DNA from: Candidatus Omnitrophota bacterium
Lineage (GTDB): Bacteria; Omnitrophota; Gorgyraeia; Zapsychrales; Fredricksoniimonadaceae
Reading direction: 5' to 3'
DNA: 64,000 nt
NCBI GenBank assembly: GCA_015233675.1
Contig: JADFXH010000002.1
Location: 142,794 to 206,793 of the forward strand
In this document: positions 1 through 24,100 of the stretch, in pieces
Position numbering within the stretch: position 1 is the stretch's first letter
Layout of the letters: each line of letters opens with the position of its first letter
Position numbers and translations under genes: made by a program
Notes under the pieces: generated by a model
The model's database searches: none
Told to the model about the DNA's origin: nothing
What the model saw: the letters and a program-made list of their open reading frames with translations, nothing else

Positions 1-2621
1 CTCAACTTCCCGATTTGGACATCTGGGGAGCCAATATTTACAGAGGGCAGAGCTTTGGCACTTTATTTAGTGATTACGCAGCCAAATCTAACAAGCCGTT
101 GTGGATTTCTGAATTTGGAGTGGATGCTTTTTCCACATCAACATCACCCGCGATCATCGCCGATGTTAATAATTGGCAGTTGCAGATGACGGATCCTGGT
201 ATCCTTATTCAGGAAGGATCTGCAGATCAAGCAACACAGTCTTCCTGGGATGGGGCGTTATGGAATGAGATAGTTAATAATTCACCTGTGACCATCGGCG
301 GATCAGTGATGGAATATTCGGATGAATGGTGGAAGCCTAATGAATGGATGTGTTCAGTTCCTAATCCTTATAATGACCCTGCTATTCAGGCCGAGAACGT
401 GCAAAGTGTTGCGTATTGTATTTCCACACATAGTAATTTTGGTATTTATCCTTATCCCCCTGCTCCCGATGATTTTTCGAACGAACAGTGGTTTGGGATG
501 ATGTCCATCAGTCAGAATCCTGTTGTGGGTGGTCCTGATATTATGACTCCCCGTACAATTTATCATGTTTTTCAAACGGATTGGCAGGCTAATCCCTGGC
601 CATATTTGACCTTAAACATTTCCGGTTCAGGCATGGGGAGCATTAAAAGTTCTATTTCTACATTTGGAGGAGGACTTAATTGTAAATTTTCTTCAGATTC
701 AAATACAGGCATTTGTCTGGCTCCTTTTACCAAAAACCAACAGATTACGTTAAGTTTTTCTTCTAGTAACAATTCTACAGTGACTAATTGGGGCGTAAGT
801 GGCTGCGCTAGCGGCAGCACCACTTGTAATATAACGCCGGACACTGATATTACCTTAAATGTTACAGTAACAGCTCCGCCTGCGCCAACGGTCAGTATAA
901 CGTCCCCCGGCAACGGCGCTTCTTATACAGCGCCGACCGGTATTACATTGACAGCAAAAGCGGCTGCTAGCGCTGTTAATACAACGATCGCCTCCGTCAC
1001 TTTTTACTATAATGGCTCAACTTTTATAAGTACGGTTATTAGTAGTCCTTATTCCTATTCTTGGAGTAATGTGCCTGCAGGAACTTACAATTTAACAGCG
1101 GTTGTGACAGACAGCAATGGATCTATGAGCGTTTCTTCGGCAGTTTTAGTGACAGTTAATCCGACACCGTTAGCGCCGATCATTACAACCCAACCGCAAA
1201 GCCAAACAGTAATAGCGCCGGCACCGGTAACGTTTACGGCGGCAGCGAACGGTGTTCCAGCTCCAACCTATCAATGGGAAGTAAGTACCAATGGCGGAAA
1301 CAGCTTTACGCCGATCAGCGGCGCGACGGGTGCGACGTATACGATAACATCAACAACAACGTCTCTTGGCGGGAATAAATATAAGGTTGTGGCAACGAAT
1401 GGAGTATCACCGGCGGCAACCAGTAGCGCGGCAACGTTAACGGTTAATCCGGCATCAGCAGCGCCGACGATTACAATTCAGCCGCTTAGCCAGACGGTGA
1501 CAGAGCCGGCTTCGGCAACGTTTAGTGTGGCTGCCAGTGGTGCTCCTGCGCCAACATATAGATGGCAGCAGATGGCCCCTGGTGCTAATATTTATACTAA
1601 TATAATAGGAGCAACAAGTTCTATTTTTACAACAACAGCAACAACAGTAGCTGATAGTGGAACAAAATATGAATGTGTGGTCGCCAATTCATTAGGCAGT
1701 GTAGCCAGCAGTGCGGCGACACTAATAGTCAATGCGCCACGTCCAACAGTAGAGATAATCAGTCCGGTCAATGGGGCCCGCATTGCAGGGGGCTTCAGGA
1801 TTACCATCAATGCCATTGCTTCAGAGGCGGGTGGAATTATTAGTAAGGTTGCTTTTTACAACGGTAAGAAATTATTAGGGACAGTGGCCAGAAGGCCATA
1901 TAATTATACTTGGTATAACGTGCCTGCTGGAGTGTACAATTTAACTGCAGTTGCGACAGACAGCGCCGCAGTGACGGCGACTTCCTCGGTGATTACGGTT
2001 GTAGTTGCGGCCATTTCCTATGTTGCGCCAACGGTCGATATAATATCCCCCAGCAACAATGCTACGTATATCCAACCAGCTAATATTACTTTGACGGCCA
2101 GTGCCAGTTCTCCAAATGGGATCCGCTATGTTAAATTTTATAATGCCTCAAAACTTATAGGGGTGGCTTTTGACAGGCCGTATACTTATACTTGGAATTC
2201 TGTAGATGAAGGCGTCTACAGTATAACGGCTGTCGCGATTGATAATACCGGGTTGCTTCAGACAACTTCTTCTGCGGTTAATGTAACAGTTTCTGCTTTG
2301 TCAACACCGGATGTTTCTATAGTAAGTCCGGTCAAGGGGGCTTATATTGGAGAATGGAACTCAAGCCTCACGATAACTGCCAACGCTTCATCATCCAAGG
2401 CGGCTATCATAAGCGTGGCTTTTTACGCAAGCAATCTGAAAGGCTCTAAAATATTGCTAGGTACAATAACCAATAGCCCATATACTTATACATGGAGGCA
2501 TGTGCCAGAGGGTATTTACTATTTAACAGCTGTTGCGACTGATAGCGCTGGAGCAAAGGCAACATCCGCGGCGGTCTTTATTATAAGCCGAGCATCTCAC
2601 GGAGCGGGAATTTTCCATTAA
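1..2621 (+). CDS. Secreted glycoside-hydrolase-like protein, 5' end cut by the window edge. It holds the tail of a clan GH-A-type catalytic domain followed by an Ig-like domain array
   Basis: The frame is open from nt 3 (QLPDLDIWG...), so the TTG at 15 is not the true start. LDIWGANIYRGQSFGTLFSDYAAKSNKPLWISEFGVDAF, GGSVMEYSDEWWKP and EQWFGMMSIS are near-identical to the full-length paralogue at 27425-29935. Downstream are four ~90-aa modules (P[TD]V.I.SP.NG...PY.Y.W..V..G.Y.LTAVATD) and two I-set-like modules (TQPQSQTV...PAPTYQW). Confidence 0.75.
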   Translation, partial: QLPDLDIWGANIYRGQSFGTLFSDYAAKSNKPLWISEFGVDAFSTSTSPAIIADVNNWQLQMTDPGILIQEGSADQATQSSWDGALWNEIVNNSPVTIGGSVMEYSDEWWKPNEWMCSVPNPYNDPAIQAENVQSVAYCISTHSNFGIYPYPPAPDDFSNEQWFGMMSISQNPVVGGPDIMTPRTIYHVFQTDWQANPWPYLTLNISGSGMGSIKSSISTFGGGLNCKFSSDSNTGICLAPFTKNQQITLSFSSSNNSTVTNWGVSGCASGSTTCNITPDTDITLNVTVTAPPAPTVSITSPGNGASYTAPTGITLTAKAAASAVNTTIASVTFYYNGSTFISTVISSPYSYSWSNVPAGTYNLTAVVTDSNGSMSVSSAVLVTVNPTPLAPIITTQPQSQTVIAPAPVTFTAAANGVPAPTYQWEVSTNGGNSFTPISGATGATYTITSTTTSLGGNKYKVVATNGVSPAATSSAATLTVNPASAAPTITIQPLSQTVTEPASATFSVAASGAPAPTYRWQQMAPGANIYTNIIGATSSIFTTTATTVADSGTKYECVVANSLGSVASSAATLIVNAPRPTVEIISPVNGARIAGGFRITINAIASEAGGIISKVAFYNGKKLLGTVARRPYNYTWYNVPAGVYNLTAVATDSAAVTATSSVITVVVAAISYVAPTVDIISPSNNATYIQPANITLTASASSPNGIRYVKFYNASKLIGVAFDRPYTYTWNSVDEGVYSITAVAIDNTGLLQTTSSAVNVTVSALSTPDVSIVSPVKGAYIGEWNSSLTITANASSSKAAIISVAFYASNLKGSKILLGTITNSPYTYTWRHVPEGIYYLTAVATDSAGAKATSAAVFIISRASHGAGIFH

Positions 2622-2738
2622 AAGTGGCGAAAATTGTTAATGGATGAGATTAATTTAATAAAAATTTAACATTTTTTTATTGCGTTCGTAAGCATATGGT
2701 ATTTATGTTGTTATGAGCTTTCTTTTTAGATAATAAAT

Positions 2739-2766
2739 TTGCCAAAGCCCAGAAATATGTTATACT
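2739..2766 (+). promoter_or_regulatory. Candidate sigma70-type promoter (TTGCCA-16 nt-TATACT with a TGn extended -10) for the fibre locus
   Basis: ttgcca aagcccagaaatatgt tatact lies in a long AT-rich intergenic region about 150 nt upstream of the 2918 start. It shares the aaatatgttata/c core with the candidate promoter at 20706. Confidence 0.3.
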
Positions 2767-2917
2767 TTTAATACAAACTCCTCGCTATTATATATACTAT
2801 TTTATTTTTAATCCTTATAAAGAAAGTCAGAAATAGGAATAATTTTCCTGTTTTTTATTTTCAATTTATTTGTTAAATTGTCTATATAGAATTAAAGTCC
2901 ATTTTTAGGAGGATTGG

Positions 2918-4285
2918 ATGTTAAGACGCCTAACTATTGTAATTTTATTTTCTTTGCTGGGCCTTACACGGGCCTGCTTTGCCTCTGTCAGCTTAAGTGT
3001 TAGTCCGGTTGACGGTAGTAACGGTTTGCGGTTTGAGAGAGTGCCTGTAGCCGGAGCGGAAAATAAAAAGGAAATCCATATCCGCGTGAGCTCAACAAAT
3101 GGGAATCGGTATCAGGTTTTTCAAAGAATTCTTGAGCCTATTGTAAATGAAAAAGGAGATGCTTTAAATTTGCAGGCCATTGTGACGCAGACTTTGCCTA
3201 ATTCTAATAGCGCGGGGAGCCTTTATTTGCAGAATTCGGACCATTTGACTATGGGGGATCAGTTGCTGTATTCTTCCAGCCAGAGCGGAGCGAGTGATTC
3301 TTTTATGATTGGGTATGCTTTAGACAATAATTTATTCAATACGAGCGGAAGTTTTAGGGGGAGGATTGTCTTTACTTTACGCGGCATAGGCAATTCTTCC
3401 AGTGACCAGGTGACCCTTGATGTTATGCTGGAAACTCCCTCAAGTTTGAAAATATCGGTTAAAGGGGCGCATAATCTAGACCGGATACATATAAAGAGTT
3501 CTGACACCAGCGATAAAACAGCGGATTTTATCAATGTGTCTTTTTCAGGGAATTCCGGTCAGGAAATACGGATATATCAGGAAACGGAAAACTTCCTTGA
3601 GAATCAAACGGATGAGGGGCTGGGAGTTGGGCTTTTGCAATTAGATGCTCAAGGTGAGGGTGAAGGATTACGTATTCAGGGATTGAGCTCATTTGGTTTC
3701 GGAAGAACGCTTATTTATTCCAGTAATAAAACGGAAGATAATTTTGTAATTTATTTTTTGGTTAACGCCGATCAAGCCCAAAATCAGGCAGCCGGCTCTT
3801 ACGACGGCAAGATCAAATATATAGTGGAAACAGCTCAGGGCCAAAAAGAATTCCCAATTAATGTGCATTGCGAAATACTGCCTGTATTTACCATGAACAT
3901 AACGGCACCTCCCGGGGGGGTGAATTTTGCGCATGTGATTGCTAACAATCCTCCTCAGAACAAAGAAGTGCTGATAACAGTATCATCCAATTTACATAAG
4001 TCTTACCAAGTCCTTCAGGGTCTTCAGACGGGTATGACTAATCAACAAGGAAAGGAGTTCAATAATAAATATTTCAATATTCAGGTTGAAATACCGTCAG
4101 GTCAAAAAGGCCGCACGGACTTTACGGAGTTTTCTCCCGTGCAAACTGGAGAATATCCTATTTTTACTTCCGACTCTTATGGAAGCGGGGCTAGCTTTAC
4201 AGTGGTATACCGCCTGCAGGGATATGCTCGCATGAGCCCGGGTGATTTTTCAGTACCGATTAGATTTTCGTTAAACCAAAAGTAA
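2918..4285 (+). CDS. Secreted three-domain protein, candidate multi-domain tip or adhesin subunit of a fibre locus
   Basis: AGGAGG RBS. Signal peptide MLRRLTIVILFSLLGLTRACFA. Three tandem ~140-aa repeats with matching motifs (IHIRVSSTNGNRYQVFQ / LITVSSNLHKSYQVLQ). Each repeat ends G-x-[FY]-x-x-x-I-x-[FY] (SGSFRGRIVFTL, AGSYDGKIKYIV, PGDFSVPIRFSL). Confidence 0.6.
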   Translation: MLRRLTIVILFSLLGLTRACFASVSLSVSPVDGSNGLRFERVPVAGAENKKEIHIRVSSTNGNRYQVFQRILEPIVNEKGDALNLQAIVTQTLPNSNSAGSLYLQNSDHLTMGDQLLYSSSQSGASDSFMIGYALDNNLFNTSGSFRGRIVFTLRGIGNSSSDQVTLDVMLETPSSLKISVKGAHNLDRIHIKSSDTSDKTADFINVSFSGNSGQEIRIYQETENFLENQTDEGLGVGLLQLDAQGEGEGLRIQGLSSFGFGRTLIYSSNKTEDNFVIYFLVNADQAQNQAAGSYDGKIKYIVETAQGQKEFPINVHCEILPVFTMNITAPPGGVNFAHVIANNPPQNKEVLITVSSNLHKSYQVLQGLQTGMTNQQGKEFNNKYFNIQVEIPSGQKGRTDFTEFSPVQTGEYPIFTSDSYGSGASFTVVYRLQGYARMSPGDFSVPIRFSLNQK

Positions 4286-4301
4286 CATTCAAAATGGAGG
4301 G

Positions 4302-4970
4302 ATGATCATGAAAACCAAATTGATTTTAATCTTAGGGGGGCTGCTCCTAGCCACCAATGCCGCAATTAGTTTAGCGGCGACGGTGACAACAACATTAACG
4401 GTGCAAGCCACTGTTCCGGCAGCAACCGGTTTGAGTTTAAGTATTACCCCTTACACGGGAAATGGCACTAAACTTACGACTTCCACAGTCACCACTACGG
4501 GTGTTTTGGATTTCGGTATTTTGACGTATAACCCAGCTACCGGCACCTATGGCGCCTCTAATACAACCCCTGGTTATTTTGCTATTGATATTGGCACAAC
4601 AGGTGGTGCAGGGACTCCAATTGTAGCGGTAACTTATGTGGAAGGGACTAATCTTAATGGTGCGTCTTCTCCTCTCGGTGGATTGGGCACTAAAACTACG
4701 GCCACGTTTTTCACAGAAACGTATACAGGCCCTACAACAAATCCCACAGAAGCGTTATCGTCTCTGGGGAAGAAAAGACTCATAGACTTAACCGGTACTG
4801 CTGGACAATTATCAACTATCCCCTCTGGTGCTTGGGAGAGGATTTATCTGGGGCTTTGGACCGGAAGCTCAACAGCATCACCTGCCGATCCGTCAAATGG
4901 TAAACCATTTACCAATGCCGATGCTGGCGGTCAGTATACTGGTACGCTGACTTTCACGTCAACGCTTTAA
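4302..4970 (+). CDS. Secreted Thr/Gly-rich protein, candidate major fibre (pilin-like) subunit
   Basis: GGAGG RBS; the ATG at 4308 has the better spacing, so the start may be 4308. Signal peptide ...LLLATNAAISLA. The mature N-terminus ATVTTTLTVQATVPAATGLSLSI is an alternating strand. The C-terminus GGQYTGTLTFTSTL is a pilin-like terminal strand. Confidence 0.55.
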   Translation: MIMKTKLILILGGLLLATNAAISLAATVTTTLTVQATVPAATGLSLSITPYTGNGTKLTTSTVTTTGVLDFGILTYNPATGTYGASNTTPGYFAIDIGTTGGAGTPIVAVTYVEGTNLNGASSPLGGLGTKTTATFFTETYTGPTTNPTEALSSLGKKRLIDLTGTAGQLSTIPSGAWERIYLGLWTGSSTASPADPSNGKPFTNADAGGQYTGTLTFTSTL

Positions 4971-5001
4971 GGGGGTTGGTAAATAGGTATTAAACAAATA
5001 C

Positions 5002-5054
5002 GTGTCATTGCGAGAAGAGGTTGCAACTTTGAAAAGCTCTTCTCGCAATGACAC
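5002..5054. repeat. Perfect 18-bp inverted repeat (gtgtcattgcgagaagag / ctcttctcgcaatgacac) with a 17-nt loop. It belongs to the GTCATTGCGAG palindromic repeat family and is a possible intra-operon hairpin
   Basis: The arms at 5002-5019 and 5037-5054 are exact reverse complements. The repeat lies between the subunit-like gene and the next gene. Confidence 0.8.
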
Positions 5055-5072
5055 AAACAGGAATTATTATTT

Positions 5073-5876
5073 ATGATTGTCAGAATAATTTTTTTATTTT
5101 TTTGTGCGTTGGGGATGCTTAACGCAACTGCTCAAGCTCAATTATTCCTTGAGCAGGCAAAAGTTTCTCTAGATGTCTCTGGCGGTGACCATCGCAATGG
5201 GTCTCTATTGATCCATAATACGTCTTCAGCTTCAGTGAATATCAGAGTCTACTGGGAGGATTTTAAGTATAAGCCGCCGTACGACGGCACCAAAGAATTT
5301 TTGCCGGCAGGGACAATGCCGGGCTCTGCAAGCCAATGGGTTGCTTTTTCTCCCCAGACGTTTTCCATACCTGCTTTCGGCCAGCAGAACATTGATTATA
5401 CGGTCAGTATCCCAAGCGAGATACAAGAGGGGCATTACGGGGTATTGTTTTTTGAATCCAGCAATCAAGCAGTCGAAGGCAAAGAGGTGGTTTCCATCGT
5501 CGAAAGGCTTGGTTGTTTGTTTTTTATTGAACCAAGCAATAAGGTAAAGAAAGCGGTTATACAAGATATTGGATTAAAGGCAAATAGCATTACTGTCAAT
5601 TTTGTCAACCATGGTAATGTTATTTTGATCCCACATACGACATACTATATTATGCAGGAAGGCGGGACGGTTAATCTTCGCGGAGAGGCTAAAAAGCTGT
5701 ATGTTCCGCCGGGCATAACGGCATCACTCGAGATACTTTTAAAAGAAAAGTTAAAGCAGGGACATTATACCTTAGTCCTAAATTCCGATTTGGAAGAGGG
5801 AGATGTGTTGGTTAAGGAAATAGGACTGGCCGTGGATGATTCCGGCCAATTGACAATAGTAAATTCGCAGGATTAA
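5073..5876 (+). CDS. Secreted two-domain beta-rich protein, candidate periplasmic Ig-like chaperone of the fibre locus
   Basis: Signal peptide MIVRIIFLFFCALGMLNATAQA. Its size (~245 aa mature), two beta-rich halves and pattern (SLLIHNTSSASVNIRVYWED ... FSPQTFSIPAFGQQNIDYTVSIP) recall PapD-type/MSP-fold chaperones. I did not see the diagnostic PapD residues. Confidence 0.4.
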   Translation: MIVRIIFLFFCALGMLNATAQAQLFLEQAKVSLDVSGGDHRNGSLLIHNTSSASVNIRVYWEDFKYKPPYDGTKEFLPAGTMPGSASQWVAFSPQTFSIPAFGQQNIDYTVSIPSEIQEGHYGVLFFESSNQAVEGKEVVSIVERLGCLFFIEPSNKVKKAVIQDIGLKANSITVNFVNHGNVILIPHTTYYIMQEGGTVNLRGEAKKLYVPPGITASLEILLKEKLKQGHYTLVLNSDLEEGDVLVKEIGLAVDDSGQLTIVNSQD

Positions 5877-8999: not shown

Positions 9000-9239
9000 T
9001 CAGGGCACCACTATAGAAGTAACCCTTATGCTTTGATTATTCCTGATCACAGTGTCTGTTTGGATTGATTGATTAGGGTTGTTTGTAAATGGAGTCCCAC
9101 CGAGACTCGTGCCCATGACATGTTCCGGTATGGTGACAGAGACCCGCAATGAAACGCTTCCGGGTATTCGGCAAAATCCCGGTTCAGTTTGTATGAAGAG
9201 AAAGATTATTAGAGCGAGCAGGAAGAAAAGTTTAAGCAT
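9000..9239 (-). CDS. Small secreted beta-strand protein (79 aa), convergent with the fibre locus
   Basis: The ATG at 9239 is preceded by AAAGGAGGG, so the longer 9299 start in the ORF track is unlikely. N-terminal hydrophobic signal MLKLFFLLALIIFLFIQ. The mature part starts SVSLRVSVTIPE, like the starts of the 455-aa and 222-aa proteins. Confidence 0.4.
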   Translation of the reverse strand: MLKLFFLLALIIFLFIQTEPGFCRIPGSVSLRVSVTIPEHVMGTSLGGTPFTNNPNQSIQTDTVIRNNQSIRVTSIVVP

Positions 9240-9472
9240 TCCGCCCTCCTTTGTTGAGAGTTTGAACGTCTCGAAAAAGAGGACGAAATGCTTATTCACG
9301 AAACCACGATGAATATAAGGTCACGGCAACCAGACAGCCCTGCTTATCCCCAGATAAGGTTAGGCTCACGGCTTTGCGTCCTACTTTTTCAAGTAGTTTG
9401 CCTTTTTCGAGTTTTTAAAGAGCGTACTTCTAAAACCTAATTAAAATATAACATATATTTTCAGCCTTTGCC

Positions 9473-9514
9473 AATCATGTAAAGCAAATCATGTAAAGCA
9501 AATCATATAAAGCA
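9473..9514. repeat. Three tandem copies of a 14-bp unit (aatcatgtaaagca) ending 6 nt before the ATG at 9521
   Basis: Units at 9473-9486, 9487-9500 and 9501-9514. The third has one substitution (g to a). Confidence 0.85.
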
Positions 9515-9520
9515 AGATGT

Positions 9521-20602: not shown

Positions 20603-20705
20603 TTTAACCAGAGAGATTAAATTAAGAAAAAATTAAATATTTTCTGGCACGTTATAACCATATGTATTTCAATATGTTATATATTTCTAATTTTGCCTGC
20701 TCAAT

Positions 20706-20733
20706 TTGACAACTTTCAAATATATGTTATCCT
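20706..20733 (+). promoter_or_regulatory. Candidate sigma70-type promoter (TTGACA-16 nt-TATCCT with TGn) for the giant ORF
   Basis: ttgaca actttcaaatatatgt tatcct. If used, the 50-bp repeat array lies in the 5' UTR. Confidence 0.3.
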
Positions 20734-20885
20734 TTCCAAGATACCGCTTTCCTGAAAAATAGAAAGCATATCGAGTCCTTATTCCTTGTCTAAATTTATT
20801 TACATTGAAGTTTTAATTGATATATTCCCCTCTTTATTACAAAGAGGGGTAAGGGGAGTTCAAATATAAAATTTTTATTAATTAA

Positions 20886-21135
20886 GGGCGTTGGCCCGAC
20901 CTAATCAATGGAAGTGTCAGTGGAATTATAGAGAAGGGCGTTGGCCCGACCTAGTCAATGGAAATGTCAGTGGAATTATAGAGAAGGGCGTTGGCCCGAC
21001 CTAATCAATGGAAGTGTCAGTGGAATTACAGAGAAGGGCGTTGGCCCGACCTAATCAATGGAAGTGTCAGTGGAATTACAGAGAAGGGCGTTGGCCCGAC
21101 CTAATCAATGGAAGTGTCAGTGGAATTATAGAGAA
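20886..21135. repeat. Five head-to-tail copies of a 50-bp unit (gggcgttggcccgacctaatcaatggaagtgtcagtggaattatagagaa) running into the RBS of the giant ORF
   Basis: Copies at 20886, 20936, 20986, 21036 and 21086. Copy 2 has 2 substitutions. Copies 3 and 4 share 1 (attaca). Copies 1 and 5 are identical. There are no spacers. Copy 5 is followed by ggagatttagcATG. Confidence 0.95.
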
Positions 21136-21146
21136 GGAGATTTAGC

Positions 21147-24100
21147 ATGTTTAAAAAGACTTTGAGTTTAATTGTTATTATTTGCTTTTTTTTAACTTCT
21201 TTAACACCTTTATCCAAGGCCCAAGCCGATTCTGTTTTAGGCTTACCGACACCCTGGACCATGGTTAATTTAAGCCCTGCGTATATGCCTGTCATGATTA
21301 AGGGCGTCAAGGTCCATACGGACAATCCACTTCTTTTTGATTTCATATTAGATACAGGCAAGTCAGGCCTCAAGATCGATTCTGCCGAATTTAAGACTGA
21401 ATCCCAAAAATTGATCAAATATTTTTTAGCCGCATTGACGATCAAGGAAGATGATCTTTGGGTCAACTTAAGTCCTTACGAGAAAGACCGCATGATCCCG
21501 CAAGAGCTAGGCCAAACAGAGATGGGCAGGGACATGCTGGCGCAGGATTACATCCTTAAACAATTGACCGCTTCTCTTATTTATCCTGAAAAAGAATTAG
21601 GAAAGAAATTTTGGGACAATGTATACACCAAAGCCCGGCAGATGTACGGGGCAACAAACATTCCGGTCAATACGTTTAATAAGGTATGGATTGTGGCTGA
21701 CAAAGCTAAAGTTTTGGAACGTAACAACACCGCTTATGTAGTAGGTTCTCATTTAAAAGTCATGCTGGAAGAAGATTATCTGGCATTGGAGAAATACCAG
21801 GGCCAATTAACCCAATTGCCAAGCGAGGCAGCTTTGAATGTGAAAGCATCCCAAGGAACAAACCGTTCGCCAAGCAACACATTAGCCAGCCAAATTGTCA
21901 AAGAAATCATCCTCCCTGAGCTGGAAAAAGAAGTCAACCAAGGCCAAAACTTTGCGACGTTGCGCCAGATGTTCTACTCCATGATTTTAGCTTCATGGTA
22001 CAAACTGGAGCTTAAAGAGTCGCTTCTCAACCAGGTGTATAGTAATAAAGGGAAGACCAGCGGTGTGTTATCTGATGATCCAGCTGTTAAGGAGAAGATC
22101 TATCAGCAATATTTGCAGGCCTACAAGAAGGGTGTGTTTAACTATATAAAGGAAGACCTGGACACGGTAAGCCAGCAACCTATGCCGCGCAAATATTTCT
22201 CAGGTGGGTTGGCAAAGAATTTAGGGATTAAAGATGCCATGGAAGTTGAGAGGGGGAGGCCAACTGCTGGTGATGACTTTTCGGTTGGCGGCGACATGGC
22301 CATGGCCACTGTACAGGTGGCGAAGTCCAAGGTGGAGAAGACGGCAGAAAGGTTCCTGAGCCCTACACTCAGCTTCCTCGAGGCGCGAAATATCATATCT
22401 AAATCTTTAGAGAAGATTGTTTCTGCTGGTAAAATGCCCGCTCAATTAGAAAATGAATTGCTCCAGTTTATTGCCCTGAAACCTGAATCACCGGAATTAA
22501 AGCAGTTTGTATTGGAAGTATTTGTTGATGCTTTCCATCAATATTATGGGTTTGAGCATAAGGGAAAAAATTTCCCAGAAGCGCAATTTGTCTATGGATT
22601 TGTTCACTCTTTAAATTCAGCGATTATTGGAATTGAGACCTTAGGGATGGCTCAGAGTGCTTGGGTTAGGTTAAAGAATAGTAAAAACAGGCGGACTAAT
22701 TACTATGTTCCATGGACAAGTGTATCTTCTGAGTTAGTTAGGACTACCATTAAAAGTTGTAAAAGGTTTCAAGTTCTTAAAGAACAATTTCGTCAATTCG
22801 CTGGCGAGTTACCAAAAGGAACACAAACATTTAGTTTTCGAAATTTTAGAATACCTAGAATGATAGAAGGTCATACGGATCCATTATTTCTTAGGGAAGC
22901 AGGTGAAGAATGGATAAAGCATTGGTTTATGCTTAATAAGCAGATGGGGGATAAAGAAGCAGAAGAGATGACTATGATCCTTCTTAATGGGGGGTCTATA
23001 GAGATTGTTGAAGAGGAGGGCAGTAGAAATACCGCTGCTGGTTTTAAATTAAACTTCAAAATTAAGATAGCCGACGCGGCGATGATGGTGAATGCAACAG
23101 ACGATACACAAAATATAACGATTAGGGGTGAAGGTGACCGGACATTAGGAACCTTTAAAGTAGCTGATTATAAAACAGCTTTGGCAACAGTTGAATCAAA
23201 TCTTGGGTCAACAAAAATAGTATCTATTTCGAAAACAGTAAAGATGGAGTTTTATCCGATAATGTTAGTTCTAGCCGATGATATTTCAGAGCCGATAAAA
23301 GAAATTATTAAAGTTTTATTCGGTGGGAAGGGGATGTCATTAACAACGGTTGATAAATATTTTGGCATTTATCATACAAATATACTTAACAGTCCATCAA
23401 ATTTAACCAAATTGGCTTTGGATATTCGGCGGCAGCTCGAAGAATATAAGGCAGATATTCCTAGCGCGGCGATGAAGGCAAGTGAAGCGGCGGCGGGGCA
23501 ATCTTCAGAGGAGGTATTAGTTTCGAAAAATTTCTTTATTGAATCGTGGAAGGGGGTAGAAACAAATAGATATCGCAGGGCCTATGATCTTATTTGGAGA
23601 GATACGGATTCTCCAAGAACGAGCCCGTTTGCAGGGAGAGTGTATATTGACAGATCCGGTGAGAATGCGTCAAAAATAAGCCTGGACTTAAATGGAGAAA
23701 ATTATGCAGCAGAGGTTTCCCGTAATATGCAGTTGATAAGCGGAGAAGATGCGTTGTATTTTTTACGGGATGCTGCGGTGGCGAAGAGAAGTCAGGTATT
23801 ATTAAATCCGAATGGACGACGTTTGGCTGAATTCATGAGAGATAAAATGGTTTACGGCAAGGCTCCTATCGTTTCTTTTTCGGCTCCTTTATCTATTGGC
23901 TCTGCGAGCTGGGGTATATTTAATGCAGGAGTAGGAATAGGATTTGATTGGATTGATATGGGTCGAGGCGCAAAAGAGCAGGTTTTTAATATGAAGGGAC
24001 AGGGGATAGGGGGGTATGAGAACCTCTGGACTCCGTCGGAAAGTGTGCAAGCAATCTCTTATGATCCGGTTGCGCAAACAGTGAAAGTCACGTTAAAAGG

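Follow-up and report, generated by a model that had tools for sequence, protein, structure and literature searches.

The 64-kb stretch of DNA analysed here, which we refer to as the window, carries an array of 50-bp direct repeats that runs up to the ribosome-binding site of a gene encoding a 2020-aa protein (Table 1). A Candidatus Omnitrophica MAG encodes an identical protein, HQL12_02340. The N-terminus resembles a signal peptide, and two enzyme-like domains follow, one URO-D/MtaA-like (residues 1176–1424) and one AroE-like (about residues 1615–1873). Over the first ~400 residues, identity is 50–72% to a set of more than 3,000 proteins, most of which come from Omnitrophota MAGs and metagenomes. 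The cargo domains of the listed homologues vary, with PGK, enolase, malate synthase, hexokinase and CheY among them. The C-terminal ~75 residues (GGIDLN...) were also kept in the three distinct family members that we fetched. The initial annotation had called the gene giant, a label that we drop: a protein of 2 kaa is not giant by Omnitrophota standards (preprint 10.64898/2026.06.07.730766).

The window is otherwise ordinary chromosome, with genes for SMC, DnaG, RpoD, PFK and PK and a Kdp operon, and no transposase, integrase or other mobilising enzyme was identified in its 64 kb. At some distance from the array, a c-di-GMP-I-GGC riboswitch was detected on the minus strand (window 9321–9411; 63.5 bits against a gathering score of 59). 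It is followed by a 99-aa ORF with a hydrophobic N-terminus (window 9000–9299, minus strand), and just 5' of it lies a short tandem repeat of a 14-bp unit, AATCATGTAAAGCA, in 3.1 copies (window 9473–9515). Two further members of the protein family lie on L003, a contig from another metagenome. In the surroundings of these genes (L003 1–2187 and 8259–8744), one member is immediately preceded by an amine-oxidase/NAD-binding gene and a URO-D gene that stands alone, and the second member begins about 2 kb 3' of the first.

Table 1. Features of the leader and gene at the repeat array, in window coordinates.
Feature	Position	Strand	Description and basis
Promoter-like site P1	20706–20733	+	TTGACA-16-TATCCT with TG-extended −10; promoter scan; predicted leader ~410 nt
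Promoter-like site P2	20799–20826	+	TTTACA-16-TATATT with TG; 57 nt 5' of the array
Stem-loop, 9 bp	20828–20850	+	CCCCTCTTT-ATTAC-AAAGAGGGG; directly 3' of P2; no U-tract after it
Linker, A/T-rich	20851–20883	+	TTAATT at its 3' end, abutting the array; sequence reading
Array	20884–21137	+	Consensus unit AAGGGCGTTGGCCCGACCTAATCAATGGAAGTGTCAGTGGAATTATAGAG; TRF and unit search
uORF, 45 codons	21008–21145	+	ATG in copy 3; stop TAG at 21143–21145, 1 nt before the main ATG
Shine-Dalgarno AAGGAG	21134–21139	+	First 4 nt double as the terminal partial unit; GGAGATT context judged native to the gene
Gene, 2020 aa	21147–27209	+	Signal peptide, N-terminal ~400-aa module, URO-D/MtaA-like, AroE-like, C-terminal ~75-aa module

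Across the window, TRF reported a single such array, with a period of 50, 5.1 copies, 97% matches, a score of 480 and no indels. A search with the first unit, allowing up to three mismatches, placed five head-to-tail copies at 20886, 20936, 20986, 21036 and 21086, with 0, 2, 1, 1 and 0 mismatches, respectively, and located the unit at this one locus of the 64 kb; none of 100 shuffles gave any unit match in the control for the exact-unit search. Copy 1 equals copy 5 and copy 3 equals copy 4, as the initial annotation had described; the five-copy figure is that of the MAG assembly. In the TRF phase the array consists of 5 × 50 + 4 bp, beginning with AAGGGCG and closing with the partial unit AAGG. 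The near-identity of the copies indicates recent internal duplication, as had been proposed.

Each unit contains a GGGC-GTTG-GCCC hairpin and two TGGAA motifs, which form a TGGAA-N7-TGGAA direct repeat; both elements had been read correctly before. The units are contiguous and have none of the spacers that a CRISPR array would require. The array is non-coding, in agreement with the initial annotation: stop-free paths across it reach at most 46 codons, and TAA or TAG occurs within three units in every frame. At its 3' end it meets the AAGGAG Shine-Dalgarno (SD) sequence, 7 nt 5' of the ATG at 21147, exactly as first described. Calculated with a generic 16S tail, this SD forms the strongest anti-SD duplex of the leader (−9.7 kcal/mol).

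The first of the two promoter-like sites in Table 1, P1, had already been named as a candidate promoter. It was present in our scan, and the block TTGACA..TG.TATCCT is also found 5' of both family genes on L003. In a longer form, AATTTGACAA..N..TATATGTTATCCTTTC, the block occurs at window 20703–20740, L003 2283–2318 and L003 8162–8198, in front of three family members from two assemblies. A promoter-like block common to three genes suggests that this family of proteins with shared N- and C-terminal modules may be under shared transcriptional control. The A/T-rich leader region as a whole contains seven promoter-like sites, all consensus matches alone, where 2.7 would be expected. Because the array is located 3' of these predicted sites, it probably sits within the 5' leader, in line with the earlier placement in the 5' UTR. 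The scan called no terminator-like site at the stem-loop that follows P2. The segment at 20770–20826 was considered as a degenerate duplicate of the SD–ATG region and was rejected, with 72 of 500 shuffles scoring as well.

When a 28-mer of the unit was sought among 241 million metagenome records, a single match was returned, in contig Ga0137420_1344497 (L010). Here, 3.08 copies of a 50-bp unit, AAGGGCGTTGGCCCGACCTAATCAATAGAAAAACTTGTGGAATTATATGG, form an array that is co-oriented with a downstream 126-aa gene of the VOC/glyoxalase family, unrelated to the 2020-aa gene. The L010 unit is 82% identical to the window unit, and its phase is equal to the nucleotide. At the 5' junction, AAGGGCG comes after TTTAATTT, the window counterpart of which is TTAATT. 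At the 3' junction, AAGG is followed by AGAATAATATG at the start of the VOC gene, giving AAGG and then AG as in the window; the distance from there to the ATG is 7 nt in the window and 6 nt in L010. The array is the sole similarity between the two sequences by blastn or tblastx. Their likeness begins about 6 nt 5' of the array and stops at the SD, no flanking modules common to the two arrays were found, and the contigs with VOC genes gave no match to the domains of the protein family. L010 also has a promoter-like site 31 nt 5' of its array (4683–4710, TTGTTA-16-TAAAAT with TG) and, in the place equivalent to the window stem-loop, a terminator-like stem-loop, ACCGGC..GCCGGT, 5' of the array.

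The two unit variants differ at nine positions, while positions 1–26 and 37–47 are identical, which gives an identical run of 26–27 nt. The clustering of the nine differences has P of about 0.006 if they are independent and about 0.21 if a 6-nt block is counted as one event.

L010 (L010 1–5331) is a near-perfect palindrome: positions 75–5305 match their own reverse complement at 96% identity. Homopolymer indels distinguish the two arms, and the genes are frameshifted. The contig is probably a chimera formed in amplification or assembly, so its two arms represent one locus. In the plus arm, a small ORF at ~4267–4680, with the start MKIEYLKEESQDGPLIRLFDFDEREVRELK..., lies between an RRM gene and the array. 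Its length, roughly 135 aa, comes from a hand reading of the frameshifted sequence, and it is missing from the syntenic contig L012.

Relatives of both genes were then compared at the corresponding sites. Six other loci of the 2020-aa protein's family (L001/L002, the two L003 genes, L024 and L025), which are the closest available relatives by N-terminal module at up to 72% identity, have short leaders without the array, and no tandem repeat or unit-profile match was found in any of them. The leaders of the L003 genes measure about 55 and 70 nt. Between window and L003, alignment covers the promoter block, breaks off and resumes exactly at GGAGAT..ATG, and the ~380 window-specific nt between these blocks contain P2 and the stem-loop and end with the 254 nt of the array. 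No array was found at the VOC orthologue loci either (L011, L012, L013–L022 and L023; 82–90% protein identity). L012, with a VOC protein 87% identical to that of L010, shares its START-RRM-VOC gene order; the two align to the end of the RRM gene and then again from AGGAGAA(A/T)AATATG, with about 45 nt in L012 replacing about 730 nt in L010. This L010-specific segment comprises the small ORF, the promoter-like site, the stem-loop and, at its 3' end, the array. Since the array-free relatives keep the SD and start region, these alignments identify the SD as the gene's own at both loci; and since relatives of both genes lack the array, it is, on the same comparison, a lineage-specific addition placed exactly against a native SD.

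These comparisons bear directly on the initial annotation, which had suggested that the array could be a protein- or RNA-binding platform controlling the large gene or, in its other half, a copy-number-variable switch. A dedicated platform is not supported: six loci of the same family do without the array, and a related array stands before an unrelated VOC gene. The same annotation had held that occurrence of the unit at many unrelated loci would count against this role; an unrelated locus was indeed found, but there are two loci and not many. The better half of the earlier interpretation is a repeat of variable copy number and recent origin, and with five copies at one locus and three at the other this idea stays plausible.

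Further copies were sought widely. A profile built from eight units (nhmmer) found nothing beyond the two arrays in the window and 25 fetched loci. An 18-mer core gave six isolated chance matches, in unrelated phyla, among 185,579 reference genomes, a set that does not include the window's own MAG. Viral contigs yielded no match to three patterns, including a periodic pattern of the hairpin only, and blastn against phages and plasmids yielded no match to the unit. When stop-free peptides derived from the array were compared with 5.8 billion proteins, the sole match was a mis-called 56-aa ORF of L010 itself, and a HMMER scan of 1.84 billion representative proteins returned just weak multi-stretch matches to long proteins (31–42% identity), which we judged spurious. 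None of the papers that we found on Omnitrophota deals with repeat elements of an intergenic or non-coding kind.

[quoted passage not shown] MIRUs are direct tandem repeats of 40–100 bp, intergenic and in one orientation to the adjacent gene, and are seemingly mobile, with insertion at start codons (PMC5056196, PMC12548453); 41 MIRU-VNTR loci are known in M. tuberculosis H37Rv (Supply et al. 1997, through the summaries in PMC5056196 and PMC12548453). Like them, the array is a direct tandem repeat in this size range (here 50 bp), intergenic, free of long palindromes and fixed in orientation; it is found at two unrelated loci, in two different assemblies, placed to the nucleotide at a translation-initiation region, and its copy number varies by locus. 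MIRUs, however, lie between the genes of operons and contain small ORFs that overlap the stop codon on one side and the start codon on the other (coupling at −4 nt), whereas the 50-bp array is closed by stops in all frames, is apposed to the SD instead of the start codon, follows promoter-like sites instead of lying inside an operon, and occurs at two loci as against 41.

Pneumococcal BOX elements are likewise intergenic, near gene starts, and contain a tandem module of ~45–50 bp in variable number; their boxB arrays change copy number by slippage or unequal crossover, and they reportedly modulate the expression of neighbouring genes (PMC3049150). The BOX layout, boxA-boxB(n)-boxC, has conserved boxA and boxC brackets with terminal inverted repeats, and stable stem-loops (PMC3049150). 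By contrast, nothing outside the array is common to the window and L010, and the RNA is no stabler than shuffles; terminal inverted repeats, which a MITE or similar small non-autonomous transposon would have, are not visible by eye in the array. With neither a coupled internal ORF, as in MIRUs, nor conserved flanks, as in BOX, the array by analogy resembles both kinds of element in behaviour and is a member of neither family.

Phase-variable contingency loci, which are simple sequence repeats, offer a third comparison. Their repeats are units of 1–9 nt in a promoter spacer or ORF, and each step switches expression. The array shares with them the tandem repeats near a gene start and a copy number that slippage could change. 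It differs in having a 50-bp unit, located in the leader 3' of both promoter-like sites, which would alter neither promoter geometry nor reading frame.

Taken with slightly better than even confidence, our preferred reading is that of a bacterial minisatellite: the array would belong to a family of interspersed 50-bp tandem repeats that is rare and restricted to a lineage. Co-orientation, fixed register, absence from orthologous and paralogous sites and differing copy number are best fitted by such a family, of which there are n = 2 loci, from two different assemblies. With AAGG at both ends of each array (n × 50 + 4 bp), the structure is compatible with either a 4-bp duplication or microhomology and suggests insertion or template switching at an existing SD. 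The AAGG/AGG of an SD already in place would have received the element, by insertion or by microhomology-based copying; either event would regenerate the SD, and amplification between the short duplicates could have come afterwards. Slipped-strand mispairing or unequal recombination would then add and remove units, which would account both for five against three copies and for the homogeneity within the array. The array may be transcribed within a long 5' leader from P1, P2 or both. Any effect on expression would probably be modest, acting through leader length and possibly mRNA stability and not as a dedicated switch, because the native SD is left intact and no stable structure is added. Three observations pull the other way: the identical run of 26–27 nt could reflect functional constraint and not neutral hitch-hiking, the precise register at the two loci is just as compatible with an array that works together with the SD, and the L010 contig is error-prone and palindromic.

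The first two of these observations lead to the reading that we regard as unlikely but worth weighing, an iterated cis-regulatory RNA platform whose units recruit ribosomes at standby sites or an RNA-binding protein, such as an RRM protein or a GGA binder like CsrA, and so tune the adjacent SD. In its favour, the junction with the SD is the same to the nucleotide at two unrelated genes, unit blocks 1–26 and 37–47 are identical in both variants, and each window unit offers two GGA motifs and an AAGGG junction. The junctions between L010 units are moderately complementary to the anti-SD (−6.5 to −7.3 kcal/mol), although those of the window are weaker than the top anti-SD sites, calculated with a generic anti-SD. 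The block conservation loses significance once the 6-nt change is counted as one event. L010 does not keep the first TGGAA, the GGA of which reads AGA in two of the three units there. Relatives of both genes manage without the array.

Beyond the 4-bp hairpin, nothing stable or conserved was found in the RNA. Rfam gave no match in the array, either at the gathering score or at E ≤ 10; fold z-scores against shuffles were +1.10 for the plus strand and +0.55 for the minus strand, so that neither strand is stabler than its shuffles; and the consensus structure of the alignment amounts to four invariant pairs with no compensatory changes. The initial annotation had proposed a structured-RNA check of the leader; in the array, it was negative for an Rfam match, a stable fold and covariation. 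A structured RNA or riboswitch was rejected on the Rfam null, the shuffle-level folding and the lone invariant 4-bp hairpin. Standby SD sites were also rejected, as the complementarity of the junctions to a generic anti-SD is weak and those of the window rank below other sites.

Known leaders and sponges that bind protein iteratively, such as CsrA/RsmE targets, CsrB-type RNAs and the TRAP-bound trp leader, carry their motifs every 5–30 nt, usually in hairpin loops, and these motifs are kept among orthologues. The array is like them in having repeated purine GGA motifs in untranslated RNA beside an SD, which itself contains GGA. It is unlike them in its 50-nt period, in motifs that lie outside the predicted loops, in one motif that is not kept, and in orthologues and paralogs that are array-free. 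No gene for CsrA, Hfq or ProQ was found by tblastn in the window, 64 kb being too little for a genome-wide exclusion.

We hold it to be decidedly unlikely that the unit is a previously undescribed small mobile element which integrates specifically at SDs, duplicates AAGG to regenerate the host SD and then amplifies. Such an element could spread through unrelated leaders, possibly between lineages, without silencing genes. The conserved blocks of the unit, namely the hairpin with GACCTAATCAAT, and GTGGAATTATA, might be recognised by a trans-acting recombinase or an RNA-binding protein.

A role at the level of DNA, in which the units would be bound by a nucleoid protein or transcription factor, or would act as tandem promoters, and so control transcription of the downstream gene, strikes us as quite improbable. 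The TGGAA-N7-TGGAA repeat of the window unit would suit a protein-binding site, but the first TGGAA is not kept in L010, and a 50-bp spacing is a non-integral number of helical turns. GTGGAATTATA, kept in both unit variants, has by eye a weak likeness to an extended −10 (TGn-AATTAT), and most units read TATAAT on the minus strand; yet the promoter scan found no plus-strand promoter-like site inside the array, and the sole minus-strand site takes its −35 from outside it. The L010 array follows a terminator-like hairpin and would need a nearby promoter; separate promoter-like sites lie just 5' of both arrays. Tandem promoters were rejected on the scan, which showed no plus-strand site within the array.

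That a short ORF in the array hands ribosomes to the main start codon, as MIRUs are reported to do (PMC12548453), is highly improbable: the window uORF does stop 1 nt before the main ATG, but no SD-like sequence precedes its own ATG at 21008, it depends on a T>C change in copies 3 and 4 that deletes a TAG, and in L010 the corresponding frame stays open into the gene, with the ATG missing from units 1 and 3, so that the uORF is probably non-functional and incidental. Equally hard to credit is an assembly artefact, or a one-off local duplication without wider meaning, since, although the sequence is from a MAG, 250 bp of near-identical repeats exceed typical read length and searches of reference genomes, phages, plasmids, viral contigs and predicted proteins did not recover the unit, an independent assembly of another sample has a related array of equal period and phase in both arms of its contig, and the path through five copies can be resolved by the variants that mark copy 2 and copies 3 and 4.

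The interspersed minisatellite is thus the reading that we carry forward, and at n = 2 loci it is a modest curiosity and not a new mechanism. It carries a caution for the interpretation of MAGs, in which long, repeat-bearing leaders need not be gene-specific regulators. The single-nucleotide SD register at two unrelated genes hints at insertion that targets or tolerates ribosome-binding sites, in parallel to the MIRUs at start codons. If confirmed, the repeat could be of practical use as a VNTR-type strain marker for these organisms, and its confirmation at more loci would make it the first interspersed minisatellite family described for the Omnitrophota, an uncultivated phylum.
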